Counted from the stretch's first letter, positions 5,321 to 41,177 are shown. The stretch: 64,000 nucleotides of DNA from Bacteroidetes bacterium HGW-Bacteroidetes-4 (GCA_002840905.1 PHDD01000012.1:80144-144143), one strand, 5' to 3'. Made by a program: numbers and translations. The notes: a model not told the origin generated them from the sequence alone.

Positions 5321-5322
5321 CT

Positions 5323-8047: not shown

Positions 8048-8049
8048 AC

Positions 8050-8715: not shown

Positions 8716-8716
8716 T

Positions 8717-10035: not shown

Positions 10036-10040
10036 AAAGC

Positions 10041-10080
10041 TTTTAAAGGTAATACACGGGAAAAGTATTAACCTTTAAAA
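10041..10080 (+). terminator. Hairpin after the tail module
   Basis: TTTTAAAGGT (10041-10050) pairs perfectly with ACCTTTAAAA (10071-10080). The stem extends imperfectly through GGTAATAC/GTATTAACC. There is no clean T-run. Confidence 0.5.
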
Positions 10081-10089
10081 CTTAAAGTC

Positions 10090-21675: not shown

Positions 21676-22881
21676 TTAAAGAGCTTTAGGCAAGGTAAAA
21701 TAAAAGGTAGTTTCTTTGTTAACTTCACTTTCGACCCAAATTTCACCCCCATTTTTTAAAACAAACTCTTTGCAAATAATCAATCCCAGTCCGCTGCCTG
21801 GCGCATCTTCCTGCGAAAGGTGTTGTTTCATATCAATTTTAAATAACTGGTTTAAAAGTTCGGGCTCAATTCCTTTTCCATTATCCCAAACTTTTAACTG
21901 AAGCATATCGCCATCTTCTTTTGCTTCAATGCGAACCAGGCCATTTTTTGGTGTAAATTTTAAAGCGTTTGAAAGTAAGTTTCTAAAAATAGTTTTCACC
22001 ATATCCACATCGATGTAAGCATGCAAATGCTTGCTAATAGATGTTTCAACCTTTATTTGGTTTTGACTGGCGTTTACATCGAGCAATTCAACTACTTCAT
22101 TTACAATTTCACTTATGTTGGCCCGTTTAAAGCTTATTTTTAAACTTCCGGTTTGCGATTTGGCCCATTGCAATAAATTTTCCAGAAGGTTAAAAGCTCC
22201 CCGGGAATATTTGTTTATTTGCTTAATGTATTCATGTGCTTGTTCCGGTGCAATTTTTTCCTGTTTCTGAATTAATAAATCGGAAATGCTGATTACGGTA
22301 CTAAACGGGTTCTTTAAATCGTGAGCAATAATCGTGAAAAATTTGTCTTTTGTTGCATTAACATCTTCCAATTGTTTTTTTTGCGTCTTGATGTTCTCTT
22401 TTTCTTCTTCAAGGGCAAATTTGCTGCGTTGAATCTCAAGAGTTCGTTTGGTAAGTTTTTCTTCCAGAATATTGTAGTCGCGTAAGCGTTTTATTAGCGA
22501 TACCAGAACATTTTTCCATAGCTCTGGGCGTTGTTGGGTTACCTGGTTAAAAGTGCTTTGTTTTAACTCCAGTAGTTTGCTATCGCGAATGGCAGTAACG
22601 GTAGCAGAGCGCACCGCACTGTCGATGAGTGAATATTCACCAAAAAACTGTTTATTGTTGAGTGTGGTAAAAATATAATCGTTGTCGTGTATTTGTACCG
22701 AACCTTCAATTATAATATACATTGCGTTTCCAATATCGCCTTTTTTAAATAGCGCTTCGTCTTTTTTGAGGTGAACTTCGGTCATACTTTTAACAAACTC
22801 CATTAAAATAGAATCATCAAAAGCAGAGAAAATTTCAACTTCTTTTAAGAGAAATAAAACTTCGTTGTTTAAGGTGCTCAT
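21676..22881 (-). CDS. Cyclic-nucleotide-binding domain fused to a histidine kinase
   Basis: cNMP-binding fold (GDIGNAMYIIIEGSVQI...FFGEYSLIDSAVRSATVTAIRDSKLLEL). H-box FFTIIAHDLKNPF. ATPase motifs DNGKGIE and GSGLGLIICKEF. Confidence 0.85.
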   Translation of the reverse strand: MSTLNNEVLFLLKEVEIFSAFDDSILMEFVKSMTEVHLKKDEALFKKGDIGNAMYIIIEGSVQIHDNDYIFTTLNNKQFFGEYSLIDSAVRSATVTAIRDSKLLELKQSTFNQVTQQRPELWKNVLVSLIKRLRDYNILEEKLTKRTLEIQRSKFALEEEKENIKTQKKQLEDVNATKDKFFTIIAHDLKNPFSTVISISDLLIQKQEKIAPEQAHEYIKQINKYSRGAFNLLENLLQWAKSQTGSLKISFKRANISEIVNEVVELLDVNASQNQIKVETSISKHLHAYIDVDMVKTIFRNLLSNALKFTPKNGLVRIEAKEDGDMLQLKVWDNGKGIEPELLNQLFKIDMKQHLSQEDAPGSGLGLIICKEFVLKNGGEIWVESEVNKETTFYFTLPKAL

Positions 22882-23261: not shown

Positions 23262-25304
23262 ATGAAAACCCCAGTAATAGTTTCTCAGGATAATTGGCTT
23301 ACTCCCTATAAAGATGTGATAAAAAAACGCATGCTTAAATCCTCTGATAAGAGGGCCGAGCTTTTGAACAAAAAACATCGCCACCTGGCTGATTTTGCTA
23401 ATGGCTATTTCTCGTTTGGATGTTTTTATGAAAACGATCAACTAATTTTTCGGGACTGGTTACCCAATGCAACAGCGCTTTATCTGTTAGGACCTTTTTC
23501 AAATTGGCAAGCTGATGAAAGATTCGCTTTTTCCAAATTGGATCATGGCGTTTGGGAACTGCGTTTAAAAAAAGGTGTGGTTAACCATCAGGATTTGTAT
23601 AAGTATATGGTATACTGGGATGGAGGCCAGGGCGAAAGAATTCCGGCCTGGGCCCGGCGAGTAGTTCAGGATGAAAATACAAAAATATTTTCGGCTCAGG
23701 TTTGGCTACCACAACAAGAATTTTTTTGGCAACACCCGCTTAAGAATAGGAATCAGGCACCCATAATCTACGAGGCGCATATTGGTATGGCGGGTGAGAA
23801 TGAGAAAGTAACAACTTATAAGGAATTTAAAGATCAGGTGTTGCCCCGCATTGTATCTTTGGGTTATAATACCATTCAGTTGATGGCCATTCAGGAACAT
23901 CCGTATTATGGATCGTTTGGCTACCATGTAAGTAGTTTTTTTGCAGCAAGCTCTCGTTTTGGAACTCCCGAAGATTTAAAAGCTCTTATCGATGAAGCCC
24001 ACAAACAGGGAATTCGTGTAATTATGGATTTGGTTCATTCCCATGCGGTAAAAAACGAAGTTGAAGGTCTGGGAAATTACGATGGAACCCGTTACCAGTT
24101 TTTTCATGAAGGAGCAAGGGGCGAGCATCCTGCCTGGGATTCGTATTGTTTTAACTATGGAAAAAATGAAGTATTGCATTTTCTTCTTTCCAATGTAAAA
24201 TTTTGGATTGAAGAATACCATTTTGATGGCTTCCGTTTCGATGGTATTACCAGCATGTTGTATTATGATCATGGTTTGGGACGCGATTTTACCAGTTACG
24301 ACCATTATTTCGATGGGGGACAGGACGAAGATGCCATTGTGTATTTAATCCTGGCAAACCAATTACTGAATGAATTGAATCCAAATGCCCTCAGTATAGC
24401 TGAGGAAATGAGTGGTTATCCGGGATTAGCTGCTCCGGTGGAATGGGGAGGCTTGGGTTTTTCACACCGGCTGGCTATGGGAATTCCCGACTTCTGGATT
24501 AAAACCCTGAAAGAAACAAAAGACGAAGACTGGGATTTAGGTAAAATTTATCATGAATTGACATCGAAAAGAGACGAAGAACTGGTTATTTCGTACACTG
24601 AATCGCATGACCAGGCTTTGGTTGGTGATAAAACCATTGCTTTTCGGTTGATGGATAAAGAGATGTATTTTCACATGTTGATCGACGATTCCAATCTGGT
24701 TATTGACAGGGGAATTGCTTTGCACAAAATGATTCGTTTGGCTACAGCCGCTTCAGCTGGTGGGGGTTACCTTAATTTTATGGGGAACGAATTTGGGCAT
24801 CCGGAATGGATTGATTTTCCCCGAGAGGGAAACAACTGGTCGTTTAAATATGCTACCCGTCAATGGAGCCTGGTGGATAGAGAAGATTTGAAATACCGTT
24901 ACCTGAATGAATTTGATAAGGCCATGATACACTTGATTGCTTCCAAAAAGCTATTGACCATATTCCCATTTTATCCGCAAAAAGTTGACAATGGGGATAA
25001 AGTGCTCGCTTTTTCGCGTTCCGATTTATTTTTTGTGTTTAATTTTCATTCAACCAAAAGTTATACCGACTATGGCATTGAAGTGCCTGAAGGTAGGTAC
25101 AAATATATTTTGGGAACCGATGAACTTCAGTTTGGAGGCTTTGGCCGACTCGATGAAACGCAGTTATTTGCATCGCTACCCATAGAAAGAGAAAGTAAAA
25201 AACACCAGATAAAACTTTATTTACCCGCACGCACAGCTCTTGTGCTTGAAAGAATACCAATACCTAAAGTTTATCAACGACTGGGTCTATTGAAGAACAA
25301 ATAG
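23262..25304 (+). CDS. glgB: 1,4-alpha-glucan branching enzyme (GH13, eukaryote-like type)
   Basis: QLMAIQEHPYYGSFGYHVSSFFAASSRFGTPEDLKALIDEAHKQGIRVIMDLVHSHA, FDGFRFDGITSML and ESHDQALVGDKT. Confidence 0.9.
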   Translation: MKTPVIVSQDNWLTPYKDVIKKRMLKSSDKRAELLNKKHRHLADFANGYFSFGCFYENDQLIFRDWLPNATALYLLGPFSNWQADERFAFSKLDHGVWELRLKKGVVNHQDLYKYMVYWDGGQGERIPAWARRVVQDENTKIFSAQVWLPQQEFFWQHPLKNRNQAPIIYEAHIGMAGENEKVTTYKEFKDQVLPRIVSLGYNTIQLMAIQEHPYYGSFGYHVSSFFAASSRFGTPEDLKALIDEAHKQGIRVIMDLVHSHAVKNEVEGLGNYDGTRYQFFHEGARGEHPAWDSYCFNYGKNEVLHFLLSNVKFWIEEYHFDGFRFDGITSMLYYDHGLGRDFTSYDHYFDGGQDEDAIVYLILANQLLNELNPNALSIAEEMSGYPGLAAPVEWGGLGFSHRLAMGIPDFWIKTLKETKDEDWDLGKIYHELTSKRDEELVISYTESHDQALVGDKTIAFRLMDKEMYFHMLIDDSNLVIDRGIALHKMIRLATAASAGGGYLNFMGNEFGHPEWIDFPREGNNWSFKYATRQWSLVDREDLKYRYLNEFDKAMIHLIASKKLLTIFPFYPQKVDNGDKVLAFSRSDLFFVFNFHSTKSYTDYGIEVPEGRYKYILGTDELQFGGFGRLDETQLFASLPIERESKKHQIKLYLPARTALVLERIPIPKVYQRLGLLKNK

Positions 25305-25307
25305 CAT

Positions 25308-27017
25308 ATGAGTAAAATAACAATTTATCAGGTTTTTACACGCCTGTTTGGTAATAAAAACAGTAAATTAAAACCCCACGGAACTTTTATTGAAAATGGC
25401 GTTGGAACTTTTTCCGATTTTACCGACAAAGCTCTACAGGAAATAAAAAAGTTGGGAATAACCCATATTTGGTACACGGGAGTTATTGAACATGCTACTT
25501 GCATAGAATACCCGGAGCATCAGATTAAAGGGCAGCATCCGGCAACGGTTAAAGGCAGAGCCGGTTCACCCTATGCCATTACCGATTATTATGATGTAAA
25601 TCCCTATTTGGCAACCGACGTTGAAAAGCGAATGGAAGAATTTGAAAGTCTGGTTTCGCGGACGCATAAAAACGGATTGCAGGTAATTATCGATTTTGTG
25701 CCAAACCATGTAGCCCGGCAATACGGTTCCGATGTTTTTCCGGAAAAAGATTTTGGTTTAAACGACGATGCGCATCAGGCCTTTTTACCTACGAACGATT
25801 ATTATTACCTCCCGGGTCAGCCCCTGGTTTATTCCGATACATTGGGTACGCCTTTGCCCGAAGATAAATTGGAGCCTTATCAGGAATTTCCGGCAAAGGT
25901 TACCGGTAATAATCAGTTTCACGCACATCCTTCAATAAACGATTGGTACGAAACCGTAAAATTGAATTACGGAGTCGATTATTTTAATGGAGAGAGAACT
26001 TATTTTGATCCGATTCCGCCACTTTGGGATAAAATGCTCGATATTTTAACATATTGGGCATCAAAAAAAGTAGATGCTTTTAGATGTGATATGGCTGAAA
26101 TGGTTCCCCTGGAGTTTTGGAACTATGTAATTCCGAAACTTAAAAGTTTGTATCCAAATTTGTTGTTTATAGCTGAGGTCTATAATCCTCAGTTGTATCA
26201 AAGTTTTATCCATGACGGACATTTTGATTATTTGTATGATAAGGTGGGCTTGTACGATGCGCTTAGGCAGATTATAAATAACAGAGAGGATGCCAGTGCA
26301 ATTACTCAGTGCTGGCAACATTTGAATAATCTGGATCAATACATGCTTCGCTTTTTGGAGAATCACGATGAGCACCGCATTGCCAGTGCACAGTTTTGTT
26401 ACGACCCGTGGAAAGCAATTCCGGCCATGTTGGTTTCAGCAAGTTTACATACCGGGCCGGTGATGCTTTATTTTGGTCAGGAAGTTGGAGAACCGGCTAA
26501 AGGGGAAAGTGGTTATAGCAGCGATGATGGAAAAACCACCATCTTTGACTTTTGGAGAGTTCCCGAACATCAGAAATGGATGAACCAGGGGAAGTTTGAC
26601 GGAGGAGGTTTGGATGAAAACCAGAAAAAACTGCGTGAAACTTACCGTCAAATTTTGAATCTGGCCATAAATGAACCCGCTATTTCGCAAGGTAAGTTTT
26701 ACGATTTAATGTGGATGAACCATTTTGAAGGCGGCCCCGATCATCGGTTTAATTATGCTTACCTGCGTTATTTTGAAAAAGATACCCTGCTATTTGTTGT
26801 GAACTTCGATAATTTTTCGGAACACCGGTTTCGGTTAAAAATTCCTGAACATGCTTTAAACGAAATGGGTACTGATATTTATGGAACTTATGGTTTAATT
26901 CCTTTATTTGGCCAGGCAGATCCACAGGAAATAAAGATAGTTGATATTGCTTATGTAGGAATTGAAATTGTACTAAAACCAAACAGTGCTTTGGTTTATC
27001 GCTTGTCAAAGGTTTAA
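25308..27017 (+). CDS. Alpha-amylase family (GH13) protein, cytoplasmic
   Basis: The four GH13 regions are visible: VIIDFVPNHVA, VDAFRCDMAEMVP, FIAEVY and FLENHDEHR. No signal peptide. It starts 3 nt after glgB. Confidence 0.85.
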   Translation: MSKITIYQVFTRLFGNKNSKLKPHGTFIENGVGTFSDFTDKALQEIKKLGITHIWYTGVIEHATCIEYPEHQIKGQHPATVKGRAGSPYAITDYYDVNPYLATDVEKRMEEFESLVSRTHKNGLQVIIDFVPNHVARQYGSDVFPEKDFGLNDDAHQAFLPTNDYYYLPGQPLVYSDTLGTPLPEDKLEPYQEFPAKVTGNNQFHAHPSINDWYETVKLNYGVDYFNGERTYFDPIPPLWDKMLDILTYWASKKVDAFRCDMAEMVPLEFWNYVIPKLKSLYPNLLFIAEVYNPQLYQSFIHDGHFDYLYDKVGLYDALRQIINNREDASAITQCWQHLNNLDQYMLRFLENHDEHRIASAQFCYDPWKAIPAMLVSASLHTGPVMLYFGQEVGEPAKGESGYSSDDGKTTIFDFWRVPEHQKWMNQGKFDGGGLDENQKKLRETYRQILNLAINEPAISQGKFYDLMWMNHFEGGPDHRFNYAYLRYFEKDTLLFVVNFDNFSEHRFRLKIPEHALNEMGTDIYGTYGLIPLFGQADPQEIKIVDIAYVGIEIVLKPNSALVYRLSKV

Positions 27018-29474: not shown

Positions 29475-29513
29475 AGCTAAACGTATCCAAAAATAATTAG
29501 TTTCTTCGAATAA

Positions 29514-31550
29514 TTAATCCATATGTTCTAATTTTAATCGGGTGGGTTGGTAAGGAATGGTAAAATAAATACTGGAACCCATTCCCTGATAGGATTTTAT
29601 CCAGATTCTACCCCCCATCAATTCAACCAGACCTCTCGAAATGGGTAATCCAAGTCCGGTACCTCCCGTATTAATTGATATTGCCGGATTGCTTTGTACA
29701 AAACGATCGAAAATGTGTTTTTGATATTCAACAGGAATTCCGTCGCCGGTATCCTTTACATAAAACTCAATGTGTTGATTGTTTTCAATAGAATAGCCCA
29801 ACTCTACAAAACCTTTTTGTGTAAAGTTTAGTGCATTATCAATCAGGTTTATCAAAACCTGTTTAAGTCTCGATTCGTCGGCATTAATGTAGGTAAGCAG
29901 TTTATCGGTAAAAGGAATAATGCGCAATTCGAGTAAAGGGTTTTTTGCAAATGTTGGGGCAAAGTGTCTTTCAATATCTTCAAATAGTTCATTTATTGAA
30001 ACTTCGCGGTTAAACAATTGTAATTGCCTGGTCTCAAGTTTCGAAATATCGATAATATTATTCAACAGGGATAAGAGTTGATTGCTGCTTTTATAAATAA
30101 TTTCGAGATACTGATGTTTTTCAGAATCTGAAACCGTATTATTGTAAAGCAATTCAGCAAAGCCTGTTATACCATTCATGGGAGTCCTGATTTCATGGCT
30201 TACGTTGGCCAAAAATGCGGTTTTAAGTTTGTCGTTTTCTTCGGCTTTTTCTTTGGCTTTTATCAGTTCTTCTTCCACTTGTTTTTTTTGCGAAATATCC
30301 TGAATAATTCCAACCATAACCACCGGTTCTCCATTGTTGTCAACTTTGGTAACAATGCTCCAGTCGTTTATCCATTTGTAAGAACCATTCTTTGCTTTTA
30401 CCCTGTATTCCAGTGCATAAAAGTTTTGTTCACCCACGAGACACGATTCCAGGGTACTGAAATAATTGGCCATATCGGATGGATGCAGGTTATCTTTTAG
30501 CCAACCGGGAATACGGTTTATGGTATTGTTTGAGTATCCAAAAATATTGGCATAGCGTTCGTCAACGAAGTATTTCTGTTCCCGCAAATCGAACTCCCAG
30601 GTTCCCAGATTTCCGGCCAGCAGCGCAAACTGAAGCCGTTTTTCGCTTTGCTTTAAACGCTTAAATGTTACGTGTTGCTTTATAGTGTTACTAATTATAA
30701 GGCTGGTCATTTTTAAGATATGAATATCAGAAAAATCCCATTTTTGATTCATTTCAAAGCGGATGAGAACCAAAGCACCAATAGTTTGCCGGTCGTTTTG
30801 TATACCTGCAATAGCAAGCGATGAAGCCTGCTGCTCTTGTAATTTTTTTTTGATTCCATTAATTAACGGAGGAGTCTCGTCCAGGTTATGATAATATACC
30901 AGTTTTTGTTCTTTAATTACTTCTATCAGGTAATTTACCTCTTTTGGAGCCAACATATCGATAAATGGTTTGTTGGAGTGGTCGCCCAAACGGAATTCTT
31001 CAGAGACGGAGTTATTATCAATTCTTAACAGATATACCAATCCGGCCTGGCACAGTTCACCCACTTCGCTCATGGTCGATAACATGGCATTTTCGTAATC
31101 GTCGCTGTTTACAAAGCGTGAAGCAATTTCCGATATCTTACGTTCGAACAGCAGTTCTTTCTCTTTTAAGATATTATACTTTACTTTATCGGTAACTTCC
31201 TGAACGGTTCCCGCTATATAGGGCATTTGTTTGTCGTAAGTTAAATAGCAATTTAACTCGAAATGCCTGATGCGCTTATCAACCATTTGAAACGAAAATA
31301 TTTTCGATGCCGGAGGATTTCCTTTCTTAACCAGATGGATGTATTTTAAAAGCTCCAGGTAATCAACTTTTAAGTGGGTTGCTTTTATGTACTTTATGAT
31401 GGCTTTGGTGGTAATTTCCTCACTTATGAAGCTGAGAATGGTGTTAACTCCTTCAGAAAACCGGGCGGTGTTTTGTTTTGGCCACCATTCCCAATATCCA
31501 AGACTAGCTAATTGCTCAATATTTTTGTTTTGGATAATTAATCTATCCAT
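29514..31550 (-). CDS. PAS/GAF sensor histidine kinase (no receiver)
   Basis: H-box FLANVSHEIRTPMNGITGF. ATPase DTGDGIP and GTGLGLPISRGL. PAS- and GAF-like regions lie at the N-terminus. Confidence 0.9.
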   Translation of the reverse strand: MDRLIIQNKNIEQLASLGYWEWWPKQNTARFSEGVNTILSFISEEITTKAIIKYIKATHLKVDYLELLKYIHLVKKGNPPASKIFSFQMVDKRIRHFELNCYLTYDKQMPYIAGTVQEVTDKVKYNILKEKELLFERKISEIASRFVNSDDYENAMLSTMSEVGELCQAGLVYLLRIDNNSVSEEFRLGDHSNKPFIDMLAPKEVNYLIEVIKEQKLVYYHNLDETPPLINGIKKKLQEQQASSLAIAGIQNDRQTIGALVLIRFEMNQKWDFSDIHILKMTSLIISNTIKQHVTFKRLKQSEKRLQFALLAGNLGTWEFDLREQKYFVDERYANIFGYSNNTINRIPGWLKDNLHPSDMANYFSTLESCLVGEQNFYALEYRVKAKNGSYKWINDWSIVTKVDNNGEPVVMVGIIQDISQKKQVEEELIKAKEKAEENDKLKTAFLANVSHEIRTPMNGITGFAELLYNNTVSDSEKHQYLEIIYKSSNQLLSLLNNIIDISKLETRQLQLFNREVSINELFEDIERHFAPTFAKNPLLELRIIPFTDKLLTYINADESRLKQVLINLIDNALNFTQKGFVELGYSIENNQHIEFYVKDTGDGIPVEYQKHIFDRFVQSNPAISINTGGTGLGLPISRGLVELMGGRIWIKSYQGMGSSIYFTIPYQPTRLKLEHMD

Positions 31551-31781: not shown

Positions 31782-34700
31782 TTAAATCCACCGTAAATAG
31801 GCAAAATCCTGCCGGTGTGGGAGTTCCTTATTTTTTGGGAATATACGCAAACCATAATCGTAGGTCCCAGGTTTTTTAAGTTCAAAGTTTATTTCGTAAA
31901 AAGCCAGGGTATCTACTTTTTTTGTTAGTTTAAGTTCCTTAATGTCAATAATTTTTTGACCGCCCTGTAGCGCAAAAACCAATTCTACGCCTAAATCATC
32001 TTCTGACAGTCCTTTTAAGTCGAGTACAACTTCACCACGGTAATTTTCACCCATTTTAAAAGCTGCTTTCATGGTATTGGGAAAATCGACCGAAACCAAA
32101 TCTATTTGATCCCAGGAAGCTCTTATTTTGTTTTTCCATTGCGAAAGTTCCATGGCCAATTTATAGCCATTGGCTTGAATTCGAGTGGTTCGTTTATGGA
32201 GTTTAAGGTAAAATTTATTGATGTAATCATCGAGCATGCGTTTGGTGGTAAAGTGCGGTGCAATTCCGGCAATCGAACGTTTAATGTATTGTACCCATTC
32301 AACAGGAATATCGTTTTTATCGCGGGTGTAGTATAAAGGCGTAATTTCGTTTTCAAGAATACTATAAATGGTAGCTGCATCAAGTTCATTCTGGAAGTCC
32401 TGATTTGCGTAGGTACGTTTTTCGGGTAAAGCCCAACCGGCTTTTTCTTTGTAGCCTTCAACCCACCATCCGTCGAGAACGCTGAAGTTCAGTACGCCAT
32501 TCATTTCGGCTTTTTGTCCGCTGGTTCCGCTGGCCTCTAACGGACGGGTAGGATTATTTAGCCAAATATCCACACCTCGTACCAAACGTTTAGCTAATTC
32601 CATGTCGTAGTTTTCAAGGAAAAGTATTTTTCCGATAAACTCAGGACGACGCGAAATTTCAATAATATGTTTTATCAAATCCTGGCCTGCTTTATCGTTC
32701 GGATGTGCTTTTCCGGCAAAAAGAAATTGAACCGGGCGATCCGGATTATTGGCTATGCGGGCCAAACGTTCAATATCACTAAATATCAGATGGGCTCGTT
32801 TGTAAGTGGCAAACCTTCGGGCAAAACCAATGGTTAAGGTTTTTTCATTCACCGAGTTTAAAATATCAACAATTAGTTTAGGATTTTCGTGCCGGCGTAT
32901 AAATGATTCGTGGTACCTTTCTTTAACATAGTCAATTAAGCGTTTTCGGTACTGGTTCCGGGTTTCCCATATTGTTTTATCATCAACTTCGAATATTTTT
33001 TCCCAGTACGATGGATTCGATAAATCGTTCAGAAATCCTTCGCCAAACTGCGATTCATATAGCTTCCGCCATTTACTGGCGGTCCAGGTAGGGTAATGAA
33101 CCCCGTTGGTCACATAGTCAATATGTAGTTCACTGGCAGAAAAACCTTTCCACATGTATTGAAACATTTCTTTCGACACATCGCCGTGGAGCCGGCTAAC
33201 TCCATTCATTTCCTGCGAAGTTTTGGTGGCCAGCACACTCATTGAAAATTTTTCGCCATGGGCATTATCCACACCCCGGCCTAAATTGAGGAAGGTTTCC
33301 CAATCAATTTTCAAACGTTCGGGCAAATGGCGCATGTAGGTGCGAATCAATTCTTCATCGAATGCATCGTGGCCGGCTGGAACTGGTGTATGAGTGGTGA
33401 ACAGGGAACTGGAGCGAACCACTTCCATAGCTTCATCAAAGGTTAGGTTTTCGTGTTGAATCAGGTCCGAAAGTCGCTCTACGTTTATCATAGCAGCATG
33501 ACCTTCGTTGCAATGATAAATATCGGGATTCAGGTTTAATTCTCCTAAAGCCCTGATGCCACCAAAACCTAATATAATTTCTTGCTTTAAACGGTTTTCC
33601 CAGTCTCCTCCATAAAGCTGGTGGCTAATGGTGCGGTCTTCGGGGCTGTTTTCCAGGTAATCGGTATCGAGTAGAAAAAGAGGAATTCGACCTACCATTA
33701 CTTTCCAGATGCGCGCTTTTACAATACGTCCGGGTAGATTTACCGATACGGTTACCAGTTGTTTTAATTCATCGTAAATGGGCTCAATGGGCAGGTCGGC
33801 AAATTTTTGTGGTACAAGACTGGCTTGCTGCTCACCCGAAACAGAAAGGTGTTGGGTAAAGTATCCGTACTTATACAGAAAACCAACAGCAATCATTGGA
33901 ATGTTGCAATCGCTGGCCTCTTTCAGGTAATCGCCTGCCAAAATTCCCAAACCACCGGAATATATTTTAAGGTTGTCGGTAAGCCCGTATTCCATGCTAA
34001 AATAGCCAATCTTAGGCATGTTTTTTTGGACCGGTGTGTCCATGTAGTTCCTGAAATCGGTATATACTTTATCAAGATGTTTCAGAAAGCTTTTATCTTT
34101 GGTTAACTCTTCAAAGCGGTCCGATGATACCGTTTTTAATAAAACAACCGGGTTTTTCTGGCACTTTTTCCAGGTATCGGGTGACACACTTTCAAAAAGT
34201 TCCATGGCCTCATAATTCCAACACCACCATAGGTTCATCGACAACTCATCGAGTTGTTTGAGTGCTCCCGGAAGGTTGGAATGAATTATCATTTTTTTCC
34301 AGATTGGTTCGTTACTGGTTTGTTTGTTTTCCATTGGTTTATATGCTATTTTGGATAAATAATTCGTTTTTTCACGTTTTGATGCGGTTTGAGTTGCTTT
34401 CTCGTAAGCATCGTAATAATATTTACTAAAATTTTGCCATACGGTATCGGTTGTAAGGGCTTTGGCTTTAATGCTTATGGTTTTTCGTTCATTTTTTGAT
34501 AAATTACTCATGCTAAGTGTCCAGGATTCAATTTGTTCCACTACCTGGTTGTAATTGTCTTCGGTTCGTTTAACCACACCCAGACCATCCATCAAATCGG
34601 TCGATTTTTTTTGCATCCATTGCCCAAAACCCGAAAGACTGGTGGTAACTGTAGGAACTCCAACTGCCAGACTTTCCATGGGGGTATATCCCCAGGGTTC

Positions 34701-35993
34701 GTAATACGAGGGAAAGGCTGACATATGGAATCCGCTTAACAAATGATAATAATCGGTATTAAAAATTCCGTCGTTTCCGTTGAGGTACACGGGTGCAAAA
34801 ATTACTTTTACCTTTTGTTCCGGTTTATTCCACAGATTCAATTGTTGGCATCGATCAATAATGGGATCGTATCGGTTTGGGTTTAAGCTGTGTGTGGTAA
34901 AAGGATTGGGTAAGGGTTGAAACTGCCCTGATTTCAGGTTTTCCAGCAATTCTTTACGTGGGCCGTATTGTTCATTCGGAACTAAAATAAAAGCCACTAC
35001 CTGATTGTTTAATGCCGGGTTTTGATTTAATTTTCCCAGAGAATCTAAAAAAACATCAATACCTTTATTTTTAAATTCATACCGTCCGCTGGTGGCTATA
35101 AAAAGTGTGTTTTCGTTGCAACTGCCTCCGGTTAAAGCATTGGTAACTTTGCAAAGTATAGTGCGTGCTGAATTAATAGTACTTTCAGTTATTTTTTCCA
35201 GATGCTCCAAGGCAAATCCATTGGGAGTAATAAAGTCGGGCTCATTATTCAGCAAAAATTCACATTCGTTGGCTGTAACTTTACTAACGGTAGTAAATAC
35301 ATCGGACAGAATGGAAGCGTTTTTTTCTAAGGAATGTTTGGCCGAAACGCCAATATCTTTGGCTTTTTGGTCGGGATCGAACGAGCCGATTGAACTGTAA
35401 AGTGGCAAACCATTTCCAGCTATTGAACGGCCTAGAACTGTAGCATGTGTGGTAAAAACTGTGGCTATTTGTGGTGCATTTTCTTTGAGAAAAAGCACGC
35501 CGGCTCCGGTCATCCACTCATGGAATTGAGCAACCACTTTTTTATCGATCAGATAAAATTCTGAGAAGCTTTTAATAACCATTCCGGTAGCATATCCAAA
35601 TAAGGCAGATTCAACATAATCCCATTCTCCGCTTAGTGAATCAAGTTTAAAAACTTCCCATAAGTGTGTAAATATTTCATCTTTTTGGGGGATTAATGCA
35701 GTGAAATCGACCAGAAGGGCTTTGGGTTTGTTGGGTACATTCCAATATCCGGTTCTAAATCGTACTTCATGGCAATTTGCAGTAGCTTTCCAGTCCTGAA
35801 AAAGGTTTTTATCTTCAATAAATTCAGGATGAGTTTGTTTGTTGCTAAGAATATCGGGGCCAATAAATATCATGTTTTCACCAAACACCTGATAGTATGA
35901 GGGTAGTTTTGAAGTGATTACTGTATGAATTCCACCAACTTTATTGCATACTTCCCAACTTGTTTCAAATAAAAACATTCCGTTCTCTTCCAT
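31782..35993 (-). CDS. Fusion protein: GT3 (eukaryote-type) glycogen synthase domain plus GT35 alpha-glucan phosphorylase domain
   Basis: N-terminus: MFLFETSWEVCNKVGGIHTVITSK (GT3 hallmark). C-terminal ~830 aa: GYFSMEYGL..LKIYSGGLGILAGDYLKEASD and the PLP-Lys motif EASGTSGQKAEMNG. It is one uninterrupted 1403-codon ORF. Confidence 0.9.
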   Translation of the reverse strand: MEENGMFLFETSWEVCNKVGGIHTVITSKLPSYYQVFGENMIFIGPDILSNKQTHPEFIEDKNLFQDWKATANCHEVRFRTGYWNVPNKPKALLVDFTALIPQKDEIFTHLWEVFKLDSLSGEWDYVESALFGYATGMVIKSFSEFYLIDKKVVAQFHEWMTGAGVLFLKENAPQIATVFTTHATVLGRSIAGNGLPLYSSIGSFDPDQKAKDIGVSAKHSLEKNASILSDVFTTVSKVTANECEFLLNNEPDFITPNGFALEHLEKITESTINSARTILCKVTNALTGGSCNENTLFIATSGRYEFKNKGIDVFLDSLGKLNQNPALNNQVVAFILVPNEQYGPRKELLENLKSGQFQPLPNPFTTHSLNPNRYDPIIDRCQQLNLWNKPEQKVKVIFAPVYLNGNDGIFNTDYYHLLSGFHMSAFPSYYEPWGYTPMESLAVGVPTVTTSLSGFGQWMQKKSTDLMDGLGVVKRTEDNYNQVVEQIESWTLSMSNLSKNERKTISIKAKALTTDTVWQNFSKYYYDAYEKATQTASKREKTNYLSKIAYKPMENKQTSNEPIWKKMIIHSNLPGALKQLDELSMNLWWCWNYEAMELFESVSPDTWKKCQKNPVVLLKTVSSDRFEELTKDKSFLKHLDKVYTDFRNYMDTPVQKNMPKIGYFSMEYGLTDNLKIYSGGLGILAGDYLKEASDCNIPMIAVGFLYKYGYFTQHLSVSGEQQASLVPQKFADLPIEPIYDELKQLVTVSVNLPGRIVKARIWKVMVGRIPLFLLDTDYLENSPEDRTISHQLYGGDWENRLKQEIILGFGGIRALGELNLNPDIYHCNEGHAAMINVERLSDLIQHENLTFDEAMEVVRSSSLFTTHTPVPAGHDAFDEELIRTYMRHLPERLKIDWETFLNLGRGVDNAHGEKFSMSVLATKTSQEMNGVSRLHGDVSKEMFQYMWKGFSASELHIDYVTNGVHYPTWTASKWRKLYESQFGEGFLNDLSNPSYWEKIFEVDDKTIWETRNQYRKRLIDYVKERYHESFIRRHENPKLIVDILNSVNEKTLTIGFARRFATYKRAHLIFSDIERLARIANNPDRPVQFLFAGKAHPNDKAGQDLIKHIIEISRRPEFIGKILFLENYDMELAKRLVRGVDIWLNNPTRPLEASGTSGQKAEMNGVLNFSVLDGWWVEGYKEKAGWALPEKRTYANQDFQNELDAATIYSILENEITPLYYTRDKNDIPVEWVQYIKRSIAGIAPHFTTKRMLDDYINKFYLKLHKRTTRIQANGYKLAMELSQWKNKIRASWDQIDLVSVDFPNTMKAAFKMGENYRGEVVLDLKGLSEDDLGVELVFALQGGQKIIDIKELKLTKKVDTLAFYEINFELKKPGTYDYGLRIFPKNKELPHRQDFAYLRWI

Positions 35994-36147: not shown

Positions 36148-37452
36148 TTAATCAGCTGTTTTTTGTTTTTTCTTTTGTAGTTTTTCCTTTAGTCGTAATA
36201 TTTCTCGATCCTTTTTTTGAATGATATTGAGTAAATATTTGAATTCAGGAATTTGCTTCTCATTGGGTAAGAGCAGGTTTAAACGCAGGTTAAAATCGCT
36301 TAAAATATTCATGTAGTTTATAAACGCTTCATATGGATTTTGGTATGGATTGACATAGGAATGAACCGTACCGTCGGAGAACCATTTGGTACTCATGTAG
36401 TAGAAATGGTCGCTGTTTTGGAGGTAGTTCCAATCCTGATTCAGTTCTAAATCAGTAACTTTTTCCATTTTATCAGCAAGTTTATACAATTTGTTATAAG
36501 CTTCCTGTTGCATGTCGTTTCCGAGCCATGCGGTTAAATCACGTTCTTCGTCGGCCCACGAAATGGGATAGGGAACATTGGCAACGGCCACGGGTTGAAG
36601 TTTTTTAATAAGGTTCGATGGGGTTTCGAAAATAAAACCGGTTTTTTTAAAAAGTATTTCTGGCAGATGTTCCATAAAATCAAAGATTCCGGTTTCAGCC
36701 CATTGGTGTTCGCCTAATGTTTCATAATCCAAAAACAAATTTATTAATTCTTCTTGTGGATTTAGCTCATTGAGCCAGTCAATATATTTATCGGCGGTTA
36801 AGGGATATTTATCCCAATTTTTGTCGGAAAAACGAAAAGCAATATCAACGCTGAGTTTGTAATTGCGCATCAGCACTTTTAATTTGGGTTGAATGGCATT
36901 GTAATATAGAAAATTGGGAGATTTCCATCCCAACACATGTTTGGCTCCTTCGGTAAGCATGCCTTTAAACCCCATTTTATAAACTTCGGCTCCAATGCTA
37001 TCGGAGTATATGAGCTCGGTATTCCGAAACACTTGGGGCTTTTGTCCAAACAAATCCTCGATACGAAGGGTATGTTCCTGAACCTGAGCTCTAAACAAAG
37101 CCATGTTTTGTTGCGAAACCAGGGAGTGTGGATAGGTTTCAGCCAGGAATTCAACATTACCTGTGGCGGCTAATTCCTTAAAAATATCGATAACTTCGGG
37201 AGCATAAAGTTCAAACTGATCGAGTGCGCTGCCTGAAATAGAAAAGCTTATTCTGAATTTATTTCCCCATTTATGTATTAGTTTTAACATTAATTTGCCT
37301 GCGGGCAAATAGCATTTTTGAGCTACGCGACGGAGTATCGATTCATTCAGGTAATCATCGTAATAATAATGGTCGTTCCCAATATCAAAAAAAGGATAAT
37401 TCCTAAAGCGGAACGGTTGATGAACCTGAAAATAAAGGCAAATGTATTTCAT
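36148..37452 (-). CDS. GH57 family glycoside hydrolase
   Basis: N-terminal ICLYFQVHQPFRF (GH57 region I) and 434 aa in length. Its start overlaps the GT4 stop (ATGA). Confidence 0.85.
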   Translation of the reverse strand: MKYICLYFQVHQPFRFRNYPFFDIGNDHYYYDDYLNESILRRVAQKCYLPAGKLMLKLIHKWGNKFRISFSISGSALDQFELYAPEVIDIFKELAATGNVEFLAETYPHSLVSQQNMALFRAQVQEHTLRIEDLFGQKPQVFRNTELIYSDSIGAEVYKMGFKGMLTEGAKHVLGWKSPNFLYYNAIQPKLKVLMRNYKLSVDIAFRFSDKNWDKYPLTADKYIDWLNELNPQEELINLFLDYETLGEHQWAETGIFDFMEHLPEILFKKTGFIFETPSNLIKKLQPVAVANVPYPISWADEERDLTAWLGNDMQQEAYNKLYKLADKMEKVTDLELNQDWNYLQNSDHFYYMSTKWFSDGTVHSYVNPYQNPYEAFINYMNILSDFNLRLNLLLPNEKQIPEFKYLLNIIQKKDREILRLKEKLQKKKQKTAD

Positions 37453-38780
37453 GCTTTTACATTTCTTAGTGTTTTTTTGTATACCTGATAAACTTTTTTT
37501 GCCGGTTTATCCCATATTAAATTATTGGCTTCGGCAAGTCCGTTTTGTTTAATAAAATTGCTAAGTGCCGGATAACTTAGTATGGAATAAATGGCATTGG
37601 CCATTTTATCGATGTCCCAAAAGTCGATTTTTATGGCATGCTTAAGAATTTCGCTTACGCCCGATTGTTTTGAGATGATAACAGGAACTCCCGATTGCAT
37701 GGCTTCTAATGGTGAAATACCGAATGGTTCCGAAACCGAAGGCATAATATAAAGGTCGCTTTTAGAAAACATTTTAAGTACATCAGCTCCTTTTAAAAAT
37801 CCGGTAAAATGAAATTTGTCGGTAATGCCTAAACGAGCAGCCCGTTCTACCATTTTATGCATCATATCTCCACTTCCCGCCATAACAAAGCGAACATTTT
37901 CCATTTTTTGGAGTACTTTGTTTGCTGCTTCAATAAAATACTCGGGGCCTTTTTGTAAGGTTATTCTGCCTAAAAAGGTTACAATTTTTTCATCAATGCC
38001 ATTTTTTAAATTTGTTTGCTTGATGGGTAAACCAATTGGCTCCACCGCATTGTGGATGGTTACAACTTTTTTTGGTGAAATGGAATAATTGGCTATGACA
38101 GTGTTTCGGGTCAGATTACTAACAGTAATAATGGCATCGGCCCGATTCATTCCTTCTTTTTCTATGGCATATACTGTTGGGTTTACACTTCCGCCACTGC
38201 GATCGAAATCGGTAGCATGTACATGCAAAACCAATGGTTTGCCTGATGCTTGTTTAGCGGCAATTCCGGCGGGATAAGTTAGCCAGTCGTGTGCATGAAT
38301 TATATCAAAATCATAAATTTTGGATAACTGAGCAGCAACCAGACTGTAATTGTTTATTTCATTGTAAAGATTGGTGCCGTAACCTCCCGAAAAAGGAATT
38401 CGTCCCTGCGAATCGGTTTGCAACAAAAGTTGTTTTTCATTTGAGGATTCTCGTTTCAGTTGGTAATAATCTTCGGGCGAGGTATAAGGAATTATTTTTG
38501 AACCCACTTCGACCCATTCCATTAATTTACCATAGTTTAATTCATAAGCTACCTGAGTAATTTTAACCGGAATCTGGTTTGCACCAATTAATTGCACGTG
38601 TTTGGATTCTTCATCACCAAAATATTTTGGCACCACAAAAATTACTTCAATGTTTTTTATTTTAGAAAGCCCCTTGGTAAGTCCATAACAGGCAGTACCC
38701 AATCCACCTGAAATATGAGGAGGAAATTCCCAACCAAACATTAGTACTTTCAACATGCTATTTTCTCTTACTTTATCCAA
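37449..38780 (-). CDS. GT4-family glycosyltransferase (glucan synthase-like)
   Basis: KVLMFGWEFPPHISGGLGTACYGLTKGL (N-terminal glycogen-synthase-like motif) and the C-terminal GT-B motif PSVSEPFGISPLEAMQSGVPVI. The start may instead be Met9 at 38756. Confidence 0.85.
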   Translation of the reverse strand: MDKVRENSMLKVLMFGWEFPPHISGGLGTACYGLTKGLSKIKNIEVIFVVPKYFGDEESKHVQLIGANQIPVKITQVAYELNYGKLMEWVEVGSKIIPYTSPEDYYQLKRESSNEKQLLLQTDSQGRIPFSGGYGTNLYNEINNYSLVAAQLSKIYDFDIIHAHDWLTYPAGIAAKQASGKPLVLHVHATDFDRSGGSVNPTVYAIEKEGMNRADAIITVSNLTRNTVIANYSISPKKVVTIHNAVEPIGLPIKQTNLKNGIDEKIVTFLGRITLQKGPEYFIEAANKVLQKMENVRFVMAGSGDMMHKMVERAARLGITDKFHFTGFLKGADVLKMFSKSDLYIMPSVSEPFGISPLEAMQSGVPVIISKQSGVSEILKHAIKIDFWDIDKMANAIYSILSYPALSNFIKQNGLAEANNLIWDKPAKKVYQVYKKTLRNVKA

Positions 38781-38942: not shown

Positions 38943-40898
38943 CTAAGGTTTTGTGTTGCGTTTGGTTAAAGCAATAAGCATCATCCGTAAACGGATAAGT
39001 TCTCCGGTATTCATGGCAAATGCAATGGCTCCTTTTGCTTTATGGGGAGGATTACCATTATATAATTCCGAGATGGAACAAAGACCATGTTGCAGAAATT
39101 CTGGTTCAAAGAATTGCAACAGACGCGAAGCAGCCCTTAGTGCACTTTTGGGATATACTTTAACCAGAGCATCGAAATACTGTGTAAACAACCAGGGCCA
39201 AACCGAACCGTTGTAAGCGGCTAATTCCCTTTCCATATGATTGCCAAAGTAATCAGGGCAATAATCGGGATCAACTGGTGACAAACTACGAATCCCTTTT
39301 TGAGTTAGCAATTGATTCTTAGCTACATCAAGAATTGTTTTTATTTGTTCATTATTTAGTGGGCTGTATGGCAATGCTGCTGCAATTAGCTGATTTGGTC
39401 TTACCTGTTGGTTGGGTTTTTCTTCAACAACAAAATCGTACAAATATCCCAAATCCTGATTCCAAAAAACTTGATTGAACGATTTTTTAACTTTGGGTTC
39501 CAGTTTTTCGAGTGTTGATACAAACGATTTGTTCTTAATTTGAGTTTTGTTTTCTAATACAAAACATAAGGCATTGTACCATAACGAAGCTAATTCGACC
39601 AGATACCCAAAACGTTTTACTAAGGCTTTTCCTTCAAATTCAGCCTGCATCCAGGAATTTTGTGGATGAGGTTTTTCAATAAAGGGTAATCCATTTGTAT
39701 GGATTTTGAAATGCTCTTTTTCAACCAGGTAAGCACTAATAATTTTTAGCACCTGTTTACCGAATAGCTTCCATAAATCCATTGCTGGAAACAGACTTTG
39801 GTATTTTTGCAAGGTCCATATAAACCATAACGGTGTGTCGGGAGCATAGGTTTTTTCCTTACACGAACTTAAGATTTCAGGAATTAGATGCCCTTGAAAG
39901 TGTATGCTTATGCTTTGTAAAAATTCAAGCGCTAATTCAGGCTTGTTAATGGGTTGCATAAGACCGGGTAATGCTATTAACGCATCGCGTGAGCGGATGG
40001 GTAACCAGGGATATCCGGCAATTACATAACGTTCTTTTTCTTTTTTTATAAAAAATTGATTGATGGTATTATGCAGGCAATTTTCAAACGTATCGCGCGG
40101 AATCTGTTTGTTAATTTCGGAATTTACTTTTTTAAGTAAACCGTTACTTTTAACAGGCTCCAGGCCGGCAGTGAATACTATTGTTTCGCCTTTTTTCAGC
40201 TGCAGTTCAAAATAACCCGGAACATATAAATCTTCTTTGTAATCGTACCCTCTTTGTTGCTCCTCGGGATATTCAATGTTGTAATACCAATCGGGCGATG
40301 CAACAAATTCGTTTTTTTTTGAAAACTGTAAAAATAATTCGGGATAATTGGTATAAATTTTTGATGAAATTCCGTTTTCTACTTTTTGATAGTGATGATT
40401 TACCTCCATATTAGCTTTTCTCAGCGTATGAATGTTTCTAAAAGCCAGAAATGGCTTTATTCGGATCAGCATAGGCTTCCGGGCTTGTTCAACTGTGTAT
40501 TTAATGTAAATCCGGTTTTCGTTGGAAGCTAATACTTTTTCTTTCGATAGTATTACATCTCCAACACGATAAACCAGCTTTGGAACCGGACTGTTCGAAA
40601 AATCGTGAAGGTATTTATGTCCTTTAGGATTATAGTTATCTCCGGCATATTTGTGCATGCCAAGGTTAAAAACCGAATGGTATTCTACAAAAGATTCCTG
40701 CACATTCGAAAGCAATACATGATGGCAATTGTCCGGTTCAGGGAGGTGACAAATAAGTAAACCATGGTACTTTCGGGTATTGCATTCCACAAGTGTTGTA
40801 CATGAATAAGAACCCAAATTATTGGTCCTTAGAATTTCACATTTAAGTGAGTATTCCAGATTAATGAGCTTTGTTTTATCTATAAGATAATTAGTCAT
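38943..40898 (-). CDS. Glycogen debranching enzyme family protein (GDE N-terminal domain plus amylo-alpha-1,6-glucosidase domain)
   Basis: Hallmark CNTRKYHGLLI near the N-terminus and an (alpha/alpha)6-type C-terminal half. I chose the start at Met28 (40898); the ORF is open up to 40979. Confidence 0.8.
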   Translation of the reverse strand: MTNYLIDKTKLINLEYSLKCEILRTNNLGSYSCTTLVECNTRKYHGLLICHLPEPDNCHHVLLSNVQESFVEYHSVFNLGMHKYAGDNYNPKGHKYLHDFSNSPVPKLVYRVGDVILSKEKVLASNENRIYIKYTVEQARKPMLIRIKPFLAFRNIHTLRKANMEVNHHYQKVENGISSKIYTNYPELFLQFSKKNEFVASPDWYYNIEYPEEQQRGYDYKEDLYVPGYFELQLKKGETIVFTAGLEPVKSNGLLKKVNSEINKQIPRDTFENCLHNTINQFFIKKEKERYVIAGYPWLPIRSRDALIALPGLMQPINKPELALEFLQSISIHFQGHLIPEILSSCKEKTYAPDTPLWFIWTLQKYQSLFPAMDLWKLFGKQVLKIISAYLVEKEHFKIHTNGLPFIEKPHPQNSWMQAEFEGKALVKRFGYLVELASLWYNALCFVLENKTQIKNKSFVSTLEKLEPKVKKSFNQVFWNQDLGYLYDFVVEEKPNQQVRPNQLIAAALPYSPLNNEQIKTILDVAKNQLLTQKGIRSLSPVDPDYCPDYFGNHMERELAAYNGSVWPWLFTQYFDALVKVYPKSALRAASRLLQFFEPEFLQHGLCSISELYNGNPPHKAKGAIAFAMNTGELIRLRMMLIALTKRNTKP

Positions 40899-41177
40899 AG
40901 CTATTTTGGGTTTATACAAATTTATGAAAAAAGCACGTAGGAGTTTGGTGTTTTTATTAAATAAAATGAATGCTGTCAAAAACTGTTAGAAATTGATTTT
41001 AGATGAATTATAACTTTAAGCGATTGTTTGAAAGGGAGTAAGAGCTTTATGCCATAAAACAGCCTGACAGAAAGCTTTTGAAAGGTAAAATATAATAGCA
41101 AAAATGTGCCTGTTCCATAAGATAAATTCTTATCTTGGTGGGAAATCAGAATTATAAATTTTTAAAACTATAGAGCT

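Follow-up and report, generated by a model that had tools for sequence, protein, structure and literature searches.

The window is a 64-kb stretch of DNA (64,000 nucleotides) from Bacteroidetes bacterium HGW-Bacteroidetes-4, and its source is a metagenome-assembled genome. A single open reading frame occupies positions 31782..35993 on the minus strand, with an ATG start and a TAA stop codon at 31782-31784, and encodes a 1403-aa protein. An earlier note on this DNA had described the ORF, with no strand given, as a fusion of a GT3 glycogen synthase to a GT35 alpha-glucan phosphorylase. Pfam and NCBIfam profile searches agreed with the assignment of both halves, and every motif quoted for them is present in the translation. 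Three conserved partner genes lie upstream on the same strand: a GH57 family gene (36148..37452; Pfam PF03065, 243 bits), a gene encoding a GT4 glycosyltransferase with a starch-synthase-like N-terminus (37449..38780, overlapping the GH57 gene by 4 nt), and a gene whose product matches the GDE_N and GDE_C profiles of debranching amylo-alpha-1,6-glucosidases (38943..40979). This GDE-GT4-GH57 group adjoins the fusion in 35 of the 39 fused loci with full flanks. Two further alpha-glucan genes, encoding a CBM48-GH13 branching-enzyme-like protein (23262-25304) and a GH13 protein (25308-27017), are found on the plus strand within 23262..27017.

The GenBank/JGI protein of this organism is 100% identical to the 1403-aa fusion, and more than 120 full-length homologs of 1399-1433 aa were identified by protein database comparison, many of them annotated in other Bacteroidota, as the earlier note had believed. 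The frame is uninterrupted in 70 of 80 species-representative genomes, including those of the isolates Dysgonomonas sp. HGC4, Anaerophaga, Carboxylicivirga, Marinilabilia, and Sulfidibacter, and it is also open in the closest relative, the independent assembly L001 (dS ~0.47). At this distance, dN/dS was 0.083 for GT3, 0.020 for GT35, and 0.031 for the C-terminal beta domain, and both halves are shown to be under purifying selection. The fusion was also found in Sulfidibacter corallicola and in Planctomycetota MAGs and is retained in at least three phyla. A 4.2-kb open frame at 40% GC is not a product of chance. The earlier note had singled out a stop or frameshift at ~34.2-34.4 kb, or the loss of catalytic residues from either half, as fatal to the fusion; neither was encountered: the junction, which lies inside that interval, is free of stops in the 70 independent genomes, and the alignments show every catalytic residue in place. 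The fusion is thus confirmed as a real single polypeptide rather than an artefact.

The GT3 glycogen synthase domain, predicted to adopt a GT-B fold, spans aa 1-548 (34350..35993, minus strand). It matched Pfam Glycogen_syn PF05693 with 343.1 bits (cut-off 27) and the eukaryotic glycogen synthases Gsy2p and GYS1 with E~1e-78 at 27-28% identity; in the AF2 model, this half has a pLDDT of ~90 and a Foldseek TM of 0.73-0.80 to the same enzymes. The GT3 hallmark FETSWEVCNKVGGIHTV is at aa 9-25. The nucleotide-sugar binding motif K18-V-G-G21 (35931..35942, minus strand) corresponds to K39/G41 of human GYS1, and the catalytic motif E432-X7-E440 (34674..34700, minus strand) corresponds to E510/E518. 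Based on the catalytic and UDP-Glc residues listed for human GYS1 (PMC9287172), K39, G41, H205, R211, R331, and K337 are conserved as K18, G20, H183, R189, R304, and K310, and Y493, E510, Y514, and E518 as Y415, E432, Y436, and E440, with W512 and G513 conserved as well. Among 65 fusions, K18 was kept in 54 and each of the remaining residues in 59-65 (G20 and E432 in 64, E440 in all 65). The donor is most likely UDP-glucose, by analogy to eukaryotic GT3 enzymes and to extracts of Prevotella bryantii, for which PMC7935935 and PMC4432691 cite UDP-glucose as the glycogen precursor.

The regulatory features of the eukaryotic enzymes are largely missing from this domain. The eukaryotic Glc6P allosteric site (R579, R582, R586, K301, and H501) was not recovered by alignment. 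The helix equivalent to the Glc6P/phospho-sensing arginine cluster (aa 500-512, KNERKTISIKAKA; 34458..34496, minus strand) is largely degenerate, with GYS1 R579, R580, R582, R586, R588, and R591 aligned to K500, N, R503, S507, K, and A, respectively. These columns vary among the 65 fusions (the R586 equivalent is R in 40), the H501 equivalent is H in the window protein and D in 60 of 65, and R277, in the K301 region, is the only Glc6P-site position conserved across fusions. Phosphorylation tails are absent from both ends, since alignment to GYS1/Gsy2p starts as early as aa 3-7 and the domain runs straight into the tether; its start is 5 residues ahead of the first strand. Human residues 371-436 align to only ~17 residues here, a segment that we presume may correspond to the eukaryotic tetramerization helices, mostly missing from the window protein. 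A Chem Rev review ties extra helices to tetramerization of eukaryotic synthases. Having neither a conserved Glc6P arginine cluster nor phospho-tails, the GT3 half is predicted to be out of reach of the eukaryotic controls.

The phosphorylase half carries the hallmarks YFSMEYGL (aa 664-671) and YSGGLGILAGDYLKEASD (aa 678-695) and the PLP-lysine motif EASGTSGQKAEMNG (aa 1153-1166). No experimental paper on the fused protein was found in the literature searched, in line with the earlier note, which knew of no biochemical characterization; for the phosphorylase half, however, an orthologue has been characterized, the clade 2 glycogen phosphorylase of Segatella copri, ScGP (PDB 9L6I and related; Shobu et al., PNAS 2026, PMC12912991). 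ScGP is 53% identical to the fusion over 841 aa, aligning end to end with aa 560-1403, to the last residue, and the two share a DUF3417 helical domain, a GT35 core, and a C-terminal beta-sheet domain. The first of these, the alpha-helical domain of clade-2 phosphorylases, was assigned to aa 576-674 (33972..34268, minus strand; PF11897, 114 bits over aa 574-674). The catalytic core covers aa 675-1264 (32202..33971, minus strand) and matched NCBIfam TIGR02094, alpha-glucan family phosphorylase, with 845.7 bits (cut-off 191.7) and Pfam Phosphorylase PF00343 with 113 bits; Foldseek superposed the AF2 model on 9l6i with an rmsd of 2.2 A. The beta-sheet domain typical of clade-2 GPs (GlgP_C) comprises aa 1265-1403 (31785..32201, minus strand), where PF28476 is precomputed on homologs. 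ScGP H316, R507, R508, and K513 correspond to H868, R1059, R1060, and K1065, which are invariant or nearly so in fusions, and E278, R508, and Y512 of the proximal AMP site are kept as well. The putative pyridoxal-phosphate lysine K1161 (codon at 32511..32513, minus strand; ScGP K609) is invariant in 65 of 65 fusions. With all catalytic residues of GT3 and GT35 intact, both halves look active.

Between the two halves lies a tether predicted to be disordered (aa 549-575; 34269..34349, minus strand). Its sequence is poorly conserved, and its length between conserved anchors ranges from 26 to 44 residues across fusions. The AF2 model (mean pLDDT 87.6, pTM 0.60, pLDDT <50 at 545-568) consists of two confident bodies with no confident GT3-GT35 interface, although, as a monomer of aa 1-1200, it cannot speak to interfaces formed only in an oligomer, such as a ScGP-like pentamer. 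In this model, the bodies are joined by a flexible tether of ~27 residues and not by a fixed interface. AF2 and AF3 both fail to reproduce the true ScGP pentamer (PMC12912991).

The cryo-EM structure and kinetics of ScGP describe an asymmetric pentamer, built by the alpha-helical domain, that wraps around glycogen; ScGP binds and phosphorolyses glycogen and by itself is stable and active in this form (PMC12912991). Oligomer changes driven by AMP regulate the enzyme by gating glycogen access, and R583 of the distal AMP site is needed for decamer formation in this pentamer-to-decamer switch (PMC12912991). The equivalent of R583 is K1135 in the window fusion, and among 65 fusions it is K in 41, R in 15, Q in 5, A in 2, and G in 2; since Lys occupies this position here and the family varies at it, AMP control may not carry over to the fusion.

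Unlike the one-polypeptide fusion, ScGP is a stand-alone protein of 852 aa, and its gene is preceded, after a gap of 21 nt, by a separate gene encoding a 551-aa GT3 protein. Judged by sequence, ScGP is the naturally split form of the GT3-GT35 fusion. Such split pairs, adjacent and in the same order, strand, and reading frame, occur in Segatella, Prevotella bivia, and related Bacteroidales, where they form a Prevotellaceae/Bacteroidaceae-like clade. They share 42-44% (GT3 half) and 52-53% (GP half) identity with the window protein, and within their linker lie a new ATG ('MKIK...') and between one and three stop codons. A clade with separate proteins leans toward the covalent linkage being dispensable. 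In contrast to fused loci, however, the split pairs are without GDE-GT4-GH57 linkage (0 of 5 loci), so that their glycogen system may be rewired, which weakens this argument.

The fusion is probably a bifunctional glycogen enzyme, tethered for co-expression and for co-localization on glycogen. The N-terminal GT3 would add glucose at alpha-1,4 chain ends, most likely from UDP-glucose, and the C-terminal GT35, with PLP on K1161, would release glucose from the same chain ends as glucose-1-phosphate. Fusion would enforce strict 1:1 co-expression and place both activities on one glycogen particle, with particle binding and oligomerization probably contributed by the GT35 half, given that its orthologue ScGP wraps glycogen as a pentamer. 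Metabolite supply (UDP-glucose versus Pi/G1P) would decide whether glycogen is, on balance, built up or broken down, and AMP may act on the phosphorylase half. We infer the donor specificity, the simultaneous activity of both halves, the oligomeric state, and the way in which the enzyme is regulated.

Other readings of the locus were weighed against this one. Because the stops of the split versions lie exactly in the linker, an error at one base might in principle look like a fusion, and the source of the window is a metagenome-assembled genome, but a stop or frameshift lost by sequencing or assembly, or one half reduced to a dead scaffold, is exceedingly improbable. Artefact and pseudoenzyme are effectively refuted by 70 independent genomes with an open frame, isolates included, by the open frame of the relative at dS 0.47, and by catalytic residues that are invariant or nearly so in both halves at dN/dS 0.02-0.08. 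A reciprocal allosteric machine, in which the halves communicate and activity of one turns the other off so that no futile cycle runs on a particle, we consider rather unlikely. Such a machine fits with a fusion that at least three phyla have kept under strong purifying selection; a GT3 half devoid of eukaryotic regulatory devices would need some other control, and AMP-driven oligomer changes of the ScGP type could, in the fusion, move five synthase domains. Against it stand the disordered, poorly conserved, length-variable linker, the lack of confidently predicted inter-domain packing (pTM 0.60), an entire clade with separate halves, and the stability and activity of the ScGP pentamer on its own. 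The tether, the lack of a confidently predicted interface, and the split clade together lean against intramolecular allostery being obligatory, and this strict form of the idea is not supported; the earlier note's suggestions of reciprocal allosteric control, avoidance of a futile cycle, and editing of chain length are speculation.

It is quite improbable that GT35 supplies primers, working in the synthetic direction from G1P and short maltodextrins to make or extend chains that the tethered GT3 elongates. Cellular Pi/G1P ratios favor phosphorolysis. No glycogenin-like gene was seen within the 64-kb window, but initiation could be assigned with at least equal reason to the conserved neighboring GT4, whose N-terminus is starch-synthase-like. 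According to the Chem Rev review, GT3 enzymes depend on a primer, and glycogenin is not known from archaea or bacteria. ScGP does run the reverse reaction, with a Km for G1P slightly better than that of known GPs, but its kcat in this direction is much below that of other GPs and its degradation of glycogen is clear (PMC12912991). We also regard as unlikely an arrangement in which a ScGP-like pentamer ring grips glycogen with five synthases on ~27-residue tethers, and AMP-driven pairing of rings occludes the phosphorylase sites for large glycogen and leaves the synthases free, or the reverse. If true, it would constitute a single-particle switch or a machine for controlled glycogen cycling and energy spilling, with a regulatory logic unlike anything in the paradigms drawn from E. 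coli or eukaryotes.

The GT3-GT35 architecture is already catalogued in many Bacteroidales. JGI/IMG names the full-length homologs 'glycogen phosphorylase/synthase' (KEGG K16153), an annotation label; the window protein, with an N-terminal GT3 and a GT35 in one uninterrupted polypeptide, fits this class, and K16153 serves as a marker of alpha-glucan synthesis (PMC11093988). The NCBI name for the same proteins, 'alpha-glucan family phosphorylase', hides the synthase half. The eukaryotic synthases (Gsy2p, 3NB0; human GYS1, 7Q0B/8CVX; C. elegans, 4QLB) have the fold and all UDP-Glc and catalytic residues in common with the window GT3, which differs from them in having no phospho-regulatory tails, a largely lost Glc6P site and arginine cluster, and no known glycogenin partner. 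The profile of the Thermococcales maltodextrin phosphorylase (NCBIfam NF041129) spans aa 570-1395 at 798.6 bits, below its equivalog cut-off of 1500, and this near end-to-end match places it in the same GT35 subfamily; unlike the fusion, that enzyme stands alone, comes from archaea, and takes its name from maltodextrin, not glycogen. TreS-Mak/Pep2, GlgB-MalQ, and GlgA-GlgB also combine two glucan enzymes per polypeptide, as described in the available part of PMC11046441, where the GT3-GT35 fusion is unmentioned. The fusions described there link consecutive or cooperating steps, whereas the GT3-GT35 fusion links opposing reactions at chain ends.

The gene at 31782..35993 (minus strand) is an uninterrupted ORF that starts with ATG, stops with TAA, and encodes 1403 aa. 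All motifs quoted in the earlier note, which had proposed a single polypeptide joining a GT3 glycogen synthase to a GT35 phosphorylase, were found in this ORF at the relative positions described, and the domain architecture was borne out by Pfam and NCBIfam profile matches. Glycogen_syn (PF05693) matched aa 10-341 and a second stretch (343 bits; cut-off, 27), DUF3417 matched aa 574-674 (114 bits; cut-off, 25), and Phosphorylase (PF00343) matched aa 827-1179 (113 bits; cut-off, 27). The NCBIfam model TIGR02094, 'alpha-glucan family phosphorylase', covered aa 663-1264 with 846 bits (cut-off, 191.7), and NF041129, the Thermococcales maltodextrin phosphorylase model, scored 799 bits over aa 570-1395, below its cut-off of 1500. 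The GT3/GT35 junction (aa 549-575) corresponds to nt 34269-34349, a spot flagged for checking in the earlier note as a possible assembly error.

A public GenBank/JGI protein of 'Bacteroidetes bacterium HGW-Bacteroidetes-4' is 100% identical to the fusion. Nearly all of its best 120 homologues are 1399-1433 aa long, with 53-95% identity, and these include proteins from isolates (Anaerophaga thermohalophila, Carboxylicivirga spp., Marinilabilia rubra, Ancylomarina spp., and Balneicella halophila). We surveyed one genome per species and translated 80 homologous loci through the junction; among the matches listed, the frame was open in 70 of 80 loci and closed in 10. Synonymous divergence from the closest genome (L001, Salinivirgaceae) was ~0.47, with dN/dS lowest in the GT35 core (0.020), then the C-terminal domain (0.031), the linker (0.071), and the GT3 half (0.083). 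Searched with the GT3 half, 31 of the 150 nearest 50%-identity clusters were at least 1250 aa long, with GT3 identity as low as 33%, and fusions were found outside Bacteroidota in the Acidobacteriota isolate Sulfidibacter corallicola (1448 aa) and in several Planctomycetota MAGs. The identical public protein, the open frames, the low dN/dS values, and the distant fused homologues together exclude an assembly artefact. The single polypeptide is thus real, and the belief that similar ORFs are annotated in other Bacteroidota proved correct, since full-length homologues are present under JGI and NCBI names.

Both halves look catalytically competent from their residues. The GT3 half matched eukaryotic glycogen synthases with E~1e-78 and, in the alignment, retains every mapped UDP-glucose or catalytic residue listed in the human GYS1 cryo-EM paper (PMC9287172). 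The equivalents (GYS1/fusion) are K39/K18, G41/G20, H205/H183, A206/A184, R211/R189, R331/R304, K337/K310, Y493/Y415, E510/E432, Y514/Y436, and E518/E440, with P511, W512, and G513 also kept; His287 and Arg311 were left out because of a residue mismatch at those numbers in the alignment. Most of these positions are kept in 59-65 of 65 diverse fusions, the exception being K18 (54/65). The GT35 half (aa 560-1403) shares 53% identity over 841 residues with the Segatella copri 'clade 2' glycogen phosphorylase (ScGP), which has been studied by cryo-EM (PMC12912991). Its catalytic residues (ScGP/fusion H316/H868, R507/R1059, R508/R1060, and K513/K1065; ScGP list from PMC12912991) and the PLP residue (K609/K1161) are kept in 62-65 of 65 fusions. 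The loss of catalytic residues that the earlier note named as evidence against two active enzymes was therefore found in neither half when aligned to GYS1 and ScGP. An AF2 monomer model (aa 1-1200, built from a 65-sequence alignment and ending before the last ~64 core residues and the beta domain) superposed on ScGP at 2.2 A and on Gsy2p/GYS1 with TM 0.73-0.80; structure comparison of this model returned no solved chain with both GT3 and GT35 folds.

Judged from its sequence, the regulatory apparatus of eukaryotic enzymes is missing from the GT3 half. This half begins a few residues ahead of the first beta-strand and terminates in the tether, and thus has no phospho-tails. The helix that carries the arginine cluster in eukaryotes reads KNERKTISIKAKA in the fusion, corresponding to R579→K, R580→N, R582→R, R586→S, R588→K, and R591→A relative to GYS1, and these columns are variable across the fusion family. 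At the position of the Glc6P ligand H501, 60 of 65 fusions have Asp, yet the window fusion has His (H423, nt 34725-34727), the eukaryotic state. S507 (nt 34473-34475) lies at another Glc6P-site-homologous position, which is Arg in 40 of 65 fusions. Human GYS1 371-436 is matched by just ~17 residues, a short stretch that may stand in place of extra helices of eukaryotic GT3. A Chem Rev review (PMC11046441) ties extra helices to eukaryotic GT3 tetramerisation. Of the AMP-site residues of ScGP, the proximal ones are kept in the GT35 half. ScGP R583, at the distal AMP site, is needed for AMP-induced decamerisation (PMC12912991); its equivalent is Lys in the window fusion and variable across the family.

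Alignments of 20 and of 65 fusions show conservation to be lowest in the stretch from the last GT3 helix to DUF3417, which measures 26-44 residues. The AF2 model had a mean pLDDT of 87.6, values below 50 at residues 545-568, and a pTM of just 0.60. The fusion is thus predicted to be two confident rigid bodies whose mutual orientation is not confidently fixed.

Some relatives encode the two halves as separate genes. On contigs of S. copri-like bacteria and S. albensis, a GT3 gene (550-551 aa) lies directly upstream of a phosphorylase gene (852-853 aa) on the same strand, 21-27 nt apart, and the GT3 end and the phosphorylase start ('MKIKADY…') both fall within the region equivalent to the tether. 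We identified 13 split loci (L037, L053, L063, L069, L070, L074, L075, L078, L079, L080, and L081-L083), made up of three Segatella contigs, Prevotella bivia DSM 20514, and nine further bins. In all 13, the halves share a reading frame with one to three stops in the linker, and tblastn therefore reports them as full-length matches, so that automated surveys could miscount fused and split loci; the 10 interrupted loci of the survey, Prevotella bivia among them, had tblastn coverage of residues 7-1403. Among the loci listed, the split ones are exactly those nearest ScGP in the phosphorylase half (at least 59% identity, versus at most 52% for fused loci). The fused state occurs across Bacteroidales, Marinilabiliales-type taxa, and other phyla, so the simplest reading, drawn here from distribution rather than a rooted tree, is that the split pairs arose by one fission of an ancestral fusion. 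ScGP is a naturally split version of the fusion and would be a product of that fission; the PNAS paper (PMC12912991) mentions neither a synthase partner nor a fusion. L037 and L075 carry Bacteroidales-type split genes in bins titled Acutalibacteraceae and Lachnospiraceae (Bacillota), L075 being 80-82% identical to S. copri; these titles likely reflect bin contamination or mislabelling.

The fusion gene is the final gene of a same-strand block (minus) comprising a GDE_N + GDE_C debranching enzyme (GDE; 38943-40979), a GT4 (37449-38780), a GH57 (36148-37452), and the fusion (31782-35993). Among the matches listed, GDE-GT4-GH57 adjoins the fusion in 35 of 39 fused loci with at least 5 kb on both flanks, lying downstream of it in Alistipes, and adjoins the split genes in none of five split loci. 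The GT4 N-terminus resembles a starch-synthase catalytic domain (Glyco_transf_5), and the nearest relatives of the GT4 with solved structures are BshA-like GT4s, the maltose-1-phosphate synthase GlgM, and Pyrococcus GlgA. What such GT4s do in glycogen metabolism is described as unclear in the 2024 review (PMC11046441). In a GT3 system that has no glycogenin, this GT4 is a candidate for the initiating or primer-making role. The GH57 and GT4 genes overlap by 4 nt; the former encodes a 434-aa protein (strong Pfam match, 243 bits) for which neither an NCBIfam family nor a PDB sequence match at E<=1e-5 was found, and which may be a branching enzyme or have another GH57 activity. Two further alpha-glucan genes, one CBM48-GH13 and branching-enzyme-like, the other GH13, occupy 23262-27017, and neither glgC nor galU was seen within the window. 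Promoter-like sites were fewer than in shuffled sequences, with a tool whose models do not include Bacteroidota promoters, and terminator-like sites were about equal to shuffles.

Directly downstream of the fusion, 27039-31550 (minus) encodes two large PAS/GAF sensor histidine kinases, one a hybrid with a receiver domain. This adjacency recurs in L001, with one weak match (25% identity) at locus L025, and the kinases are probably outside the conserved system. Elsewhere, a GH16 gene (19569-21644) adjoins a gene for a histidine kinase that bears a cyclic-nucleotide-binding domain at its N-terminus (cNMP_binding + HisKA + HATPase_c; 21676-22881, minus), and 2036-10878 (plus) holds a prophage-like tail module (a weak tape-measure match, a Prophage_tail endopeptidase, and several family-less ORFs) followed by a D12-class N6-adenine DNA methyltransferase.

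GT3 enzymes use a nucleotide sugar to add glucose at the non-reducing end, and GT35 enzymes catalyze reversible phosphorolysis of that end, with Pi/G1P setting the direction. Two opposing chain-end enzymes, intact by their residues, are thus carried on one chain with a flexible tether in a conserved glycogen operon. Such a fusion would secure 1:1 expression of synthase and phosphorylase and could hold the synthase on the glycogen particle bound by the phosphorylase half; in ScGP, it is the bottom of the pentamer that wraps glycogen (PMC12912991). With the classical GT3 controls missing, substrate supply would probably govern net flux; fructose-1,6-bisphosphate is reported to activate the UDP-glucose pyrophosphorylase of P. 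bryantii (PMC4432691). An effect of AMP on the phosphorylase half is also possible.

The earlier note suggested that the fusion could allow reciprocal allosteric control. Contacts between GT3 and GT35 that form solely in an oligomer are compatible with the monomer model, but the properties of the tether and the viability of the split clade make obligatory cis-allostery less likely. Possibly the phosphorylase half supplies primers to the synthase, against which stand the low synthetic kcat of ScGP (PMC12912991) and the conserved GT4 neighbour. Glycogen futile cycling was rejected as evidence for the fusion, since Fibrobacter, where cycling has been shown, uses the classical GlgC/GlgA and cycling therefore does not need a fusion. 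Coexpression and retention on the particle, with flux set by supply, remain our favoured account.

The architecture is already known as a catalogued feature: JGI names the class 'glycogen phosphorylase/synthase' or 'phosphorylase/glycogen(starch) synthase', K16153 serves as an alpha-glucan synthesis marker (PMC11093988), and the protein is in GenBank. NCBI names the fusion and its relatives solely 'alpha-glucan family phosphorylase', so the 548-aa synthase half is invisible in the product name. Our literature search found no paper describing a GT3-GT35 fusion; the 'GT3…' strings in PMC10294740 are strain numbers, and the fusions treated in the relevant part of the 2024 Chem Rev review (PMC11046441) are other glucan-enzyme fusions. 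The earlier statement that biochemical characterisation is lacking holds for the fused protein in the literature searched; it does not hold for the phosphorylase half, since ScGP has been studied. Added here are residue-level indications of two active halves without eukaryotic regulation, a tether predicted to be disordered, the operon association, and the recognition of ScGP as a putative fission product.

Bacteroidales are dominant in gut and rumen communities and, to our knowledge, do not rely on GlgC or GlgA to store glycogen. The synthase–phosphorylase fusion, or the split form derived from it, appears to serve as their core glycogen enzyme. The fusion will not surprise a CAZy-aware specialist, yet it offers a clean experimental system: natural fused and split pairs allow a direct test of tethering opposing enzymes, including its bearing on glycogen cycling or energy spilling. 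ScGP (2026), the sole structural and kinetic work on the phosphorylase, describes the split form; in most relatives a synthase is covalently attached at the N-terminus, which changes how the ScGP pentamer, decamer, and AMP regulation are to be read.
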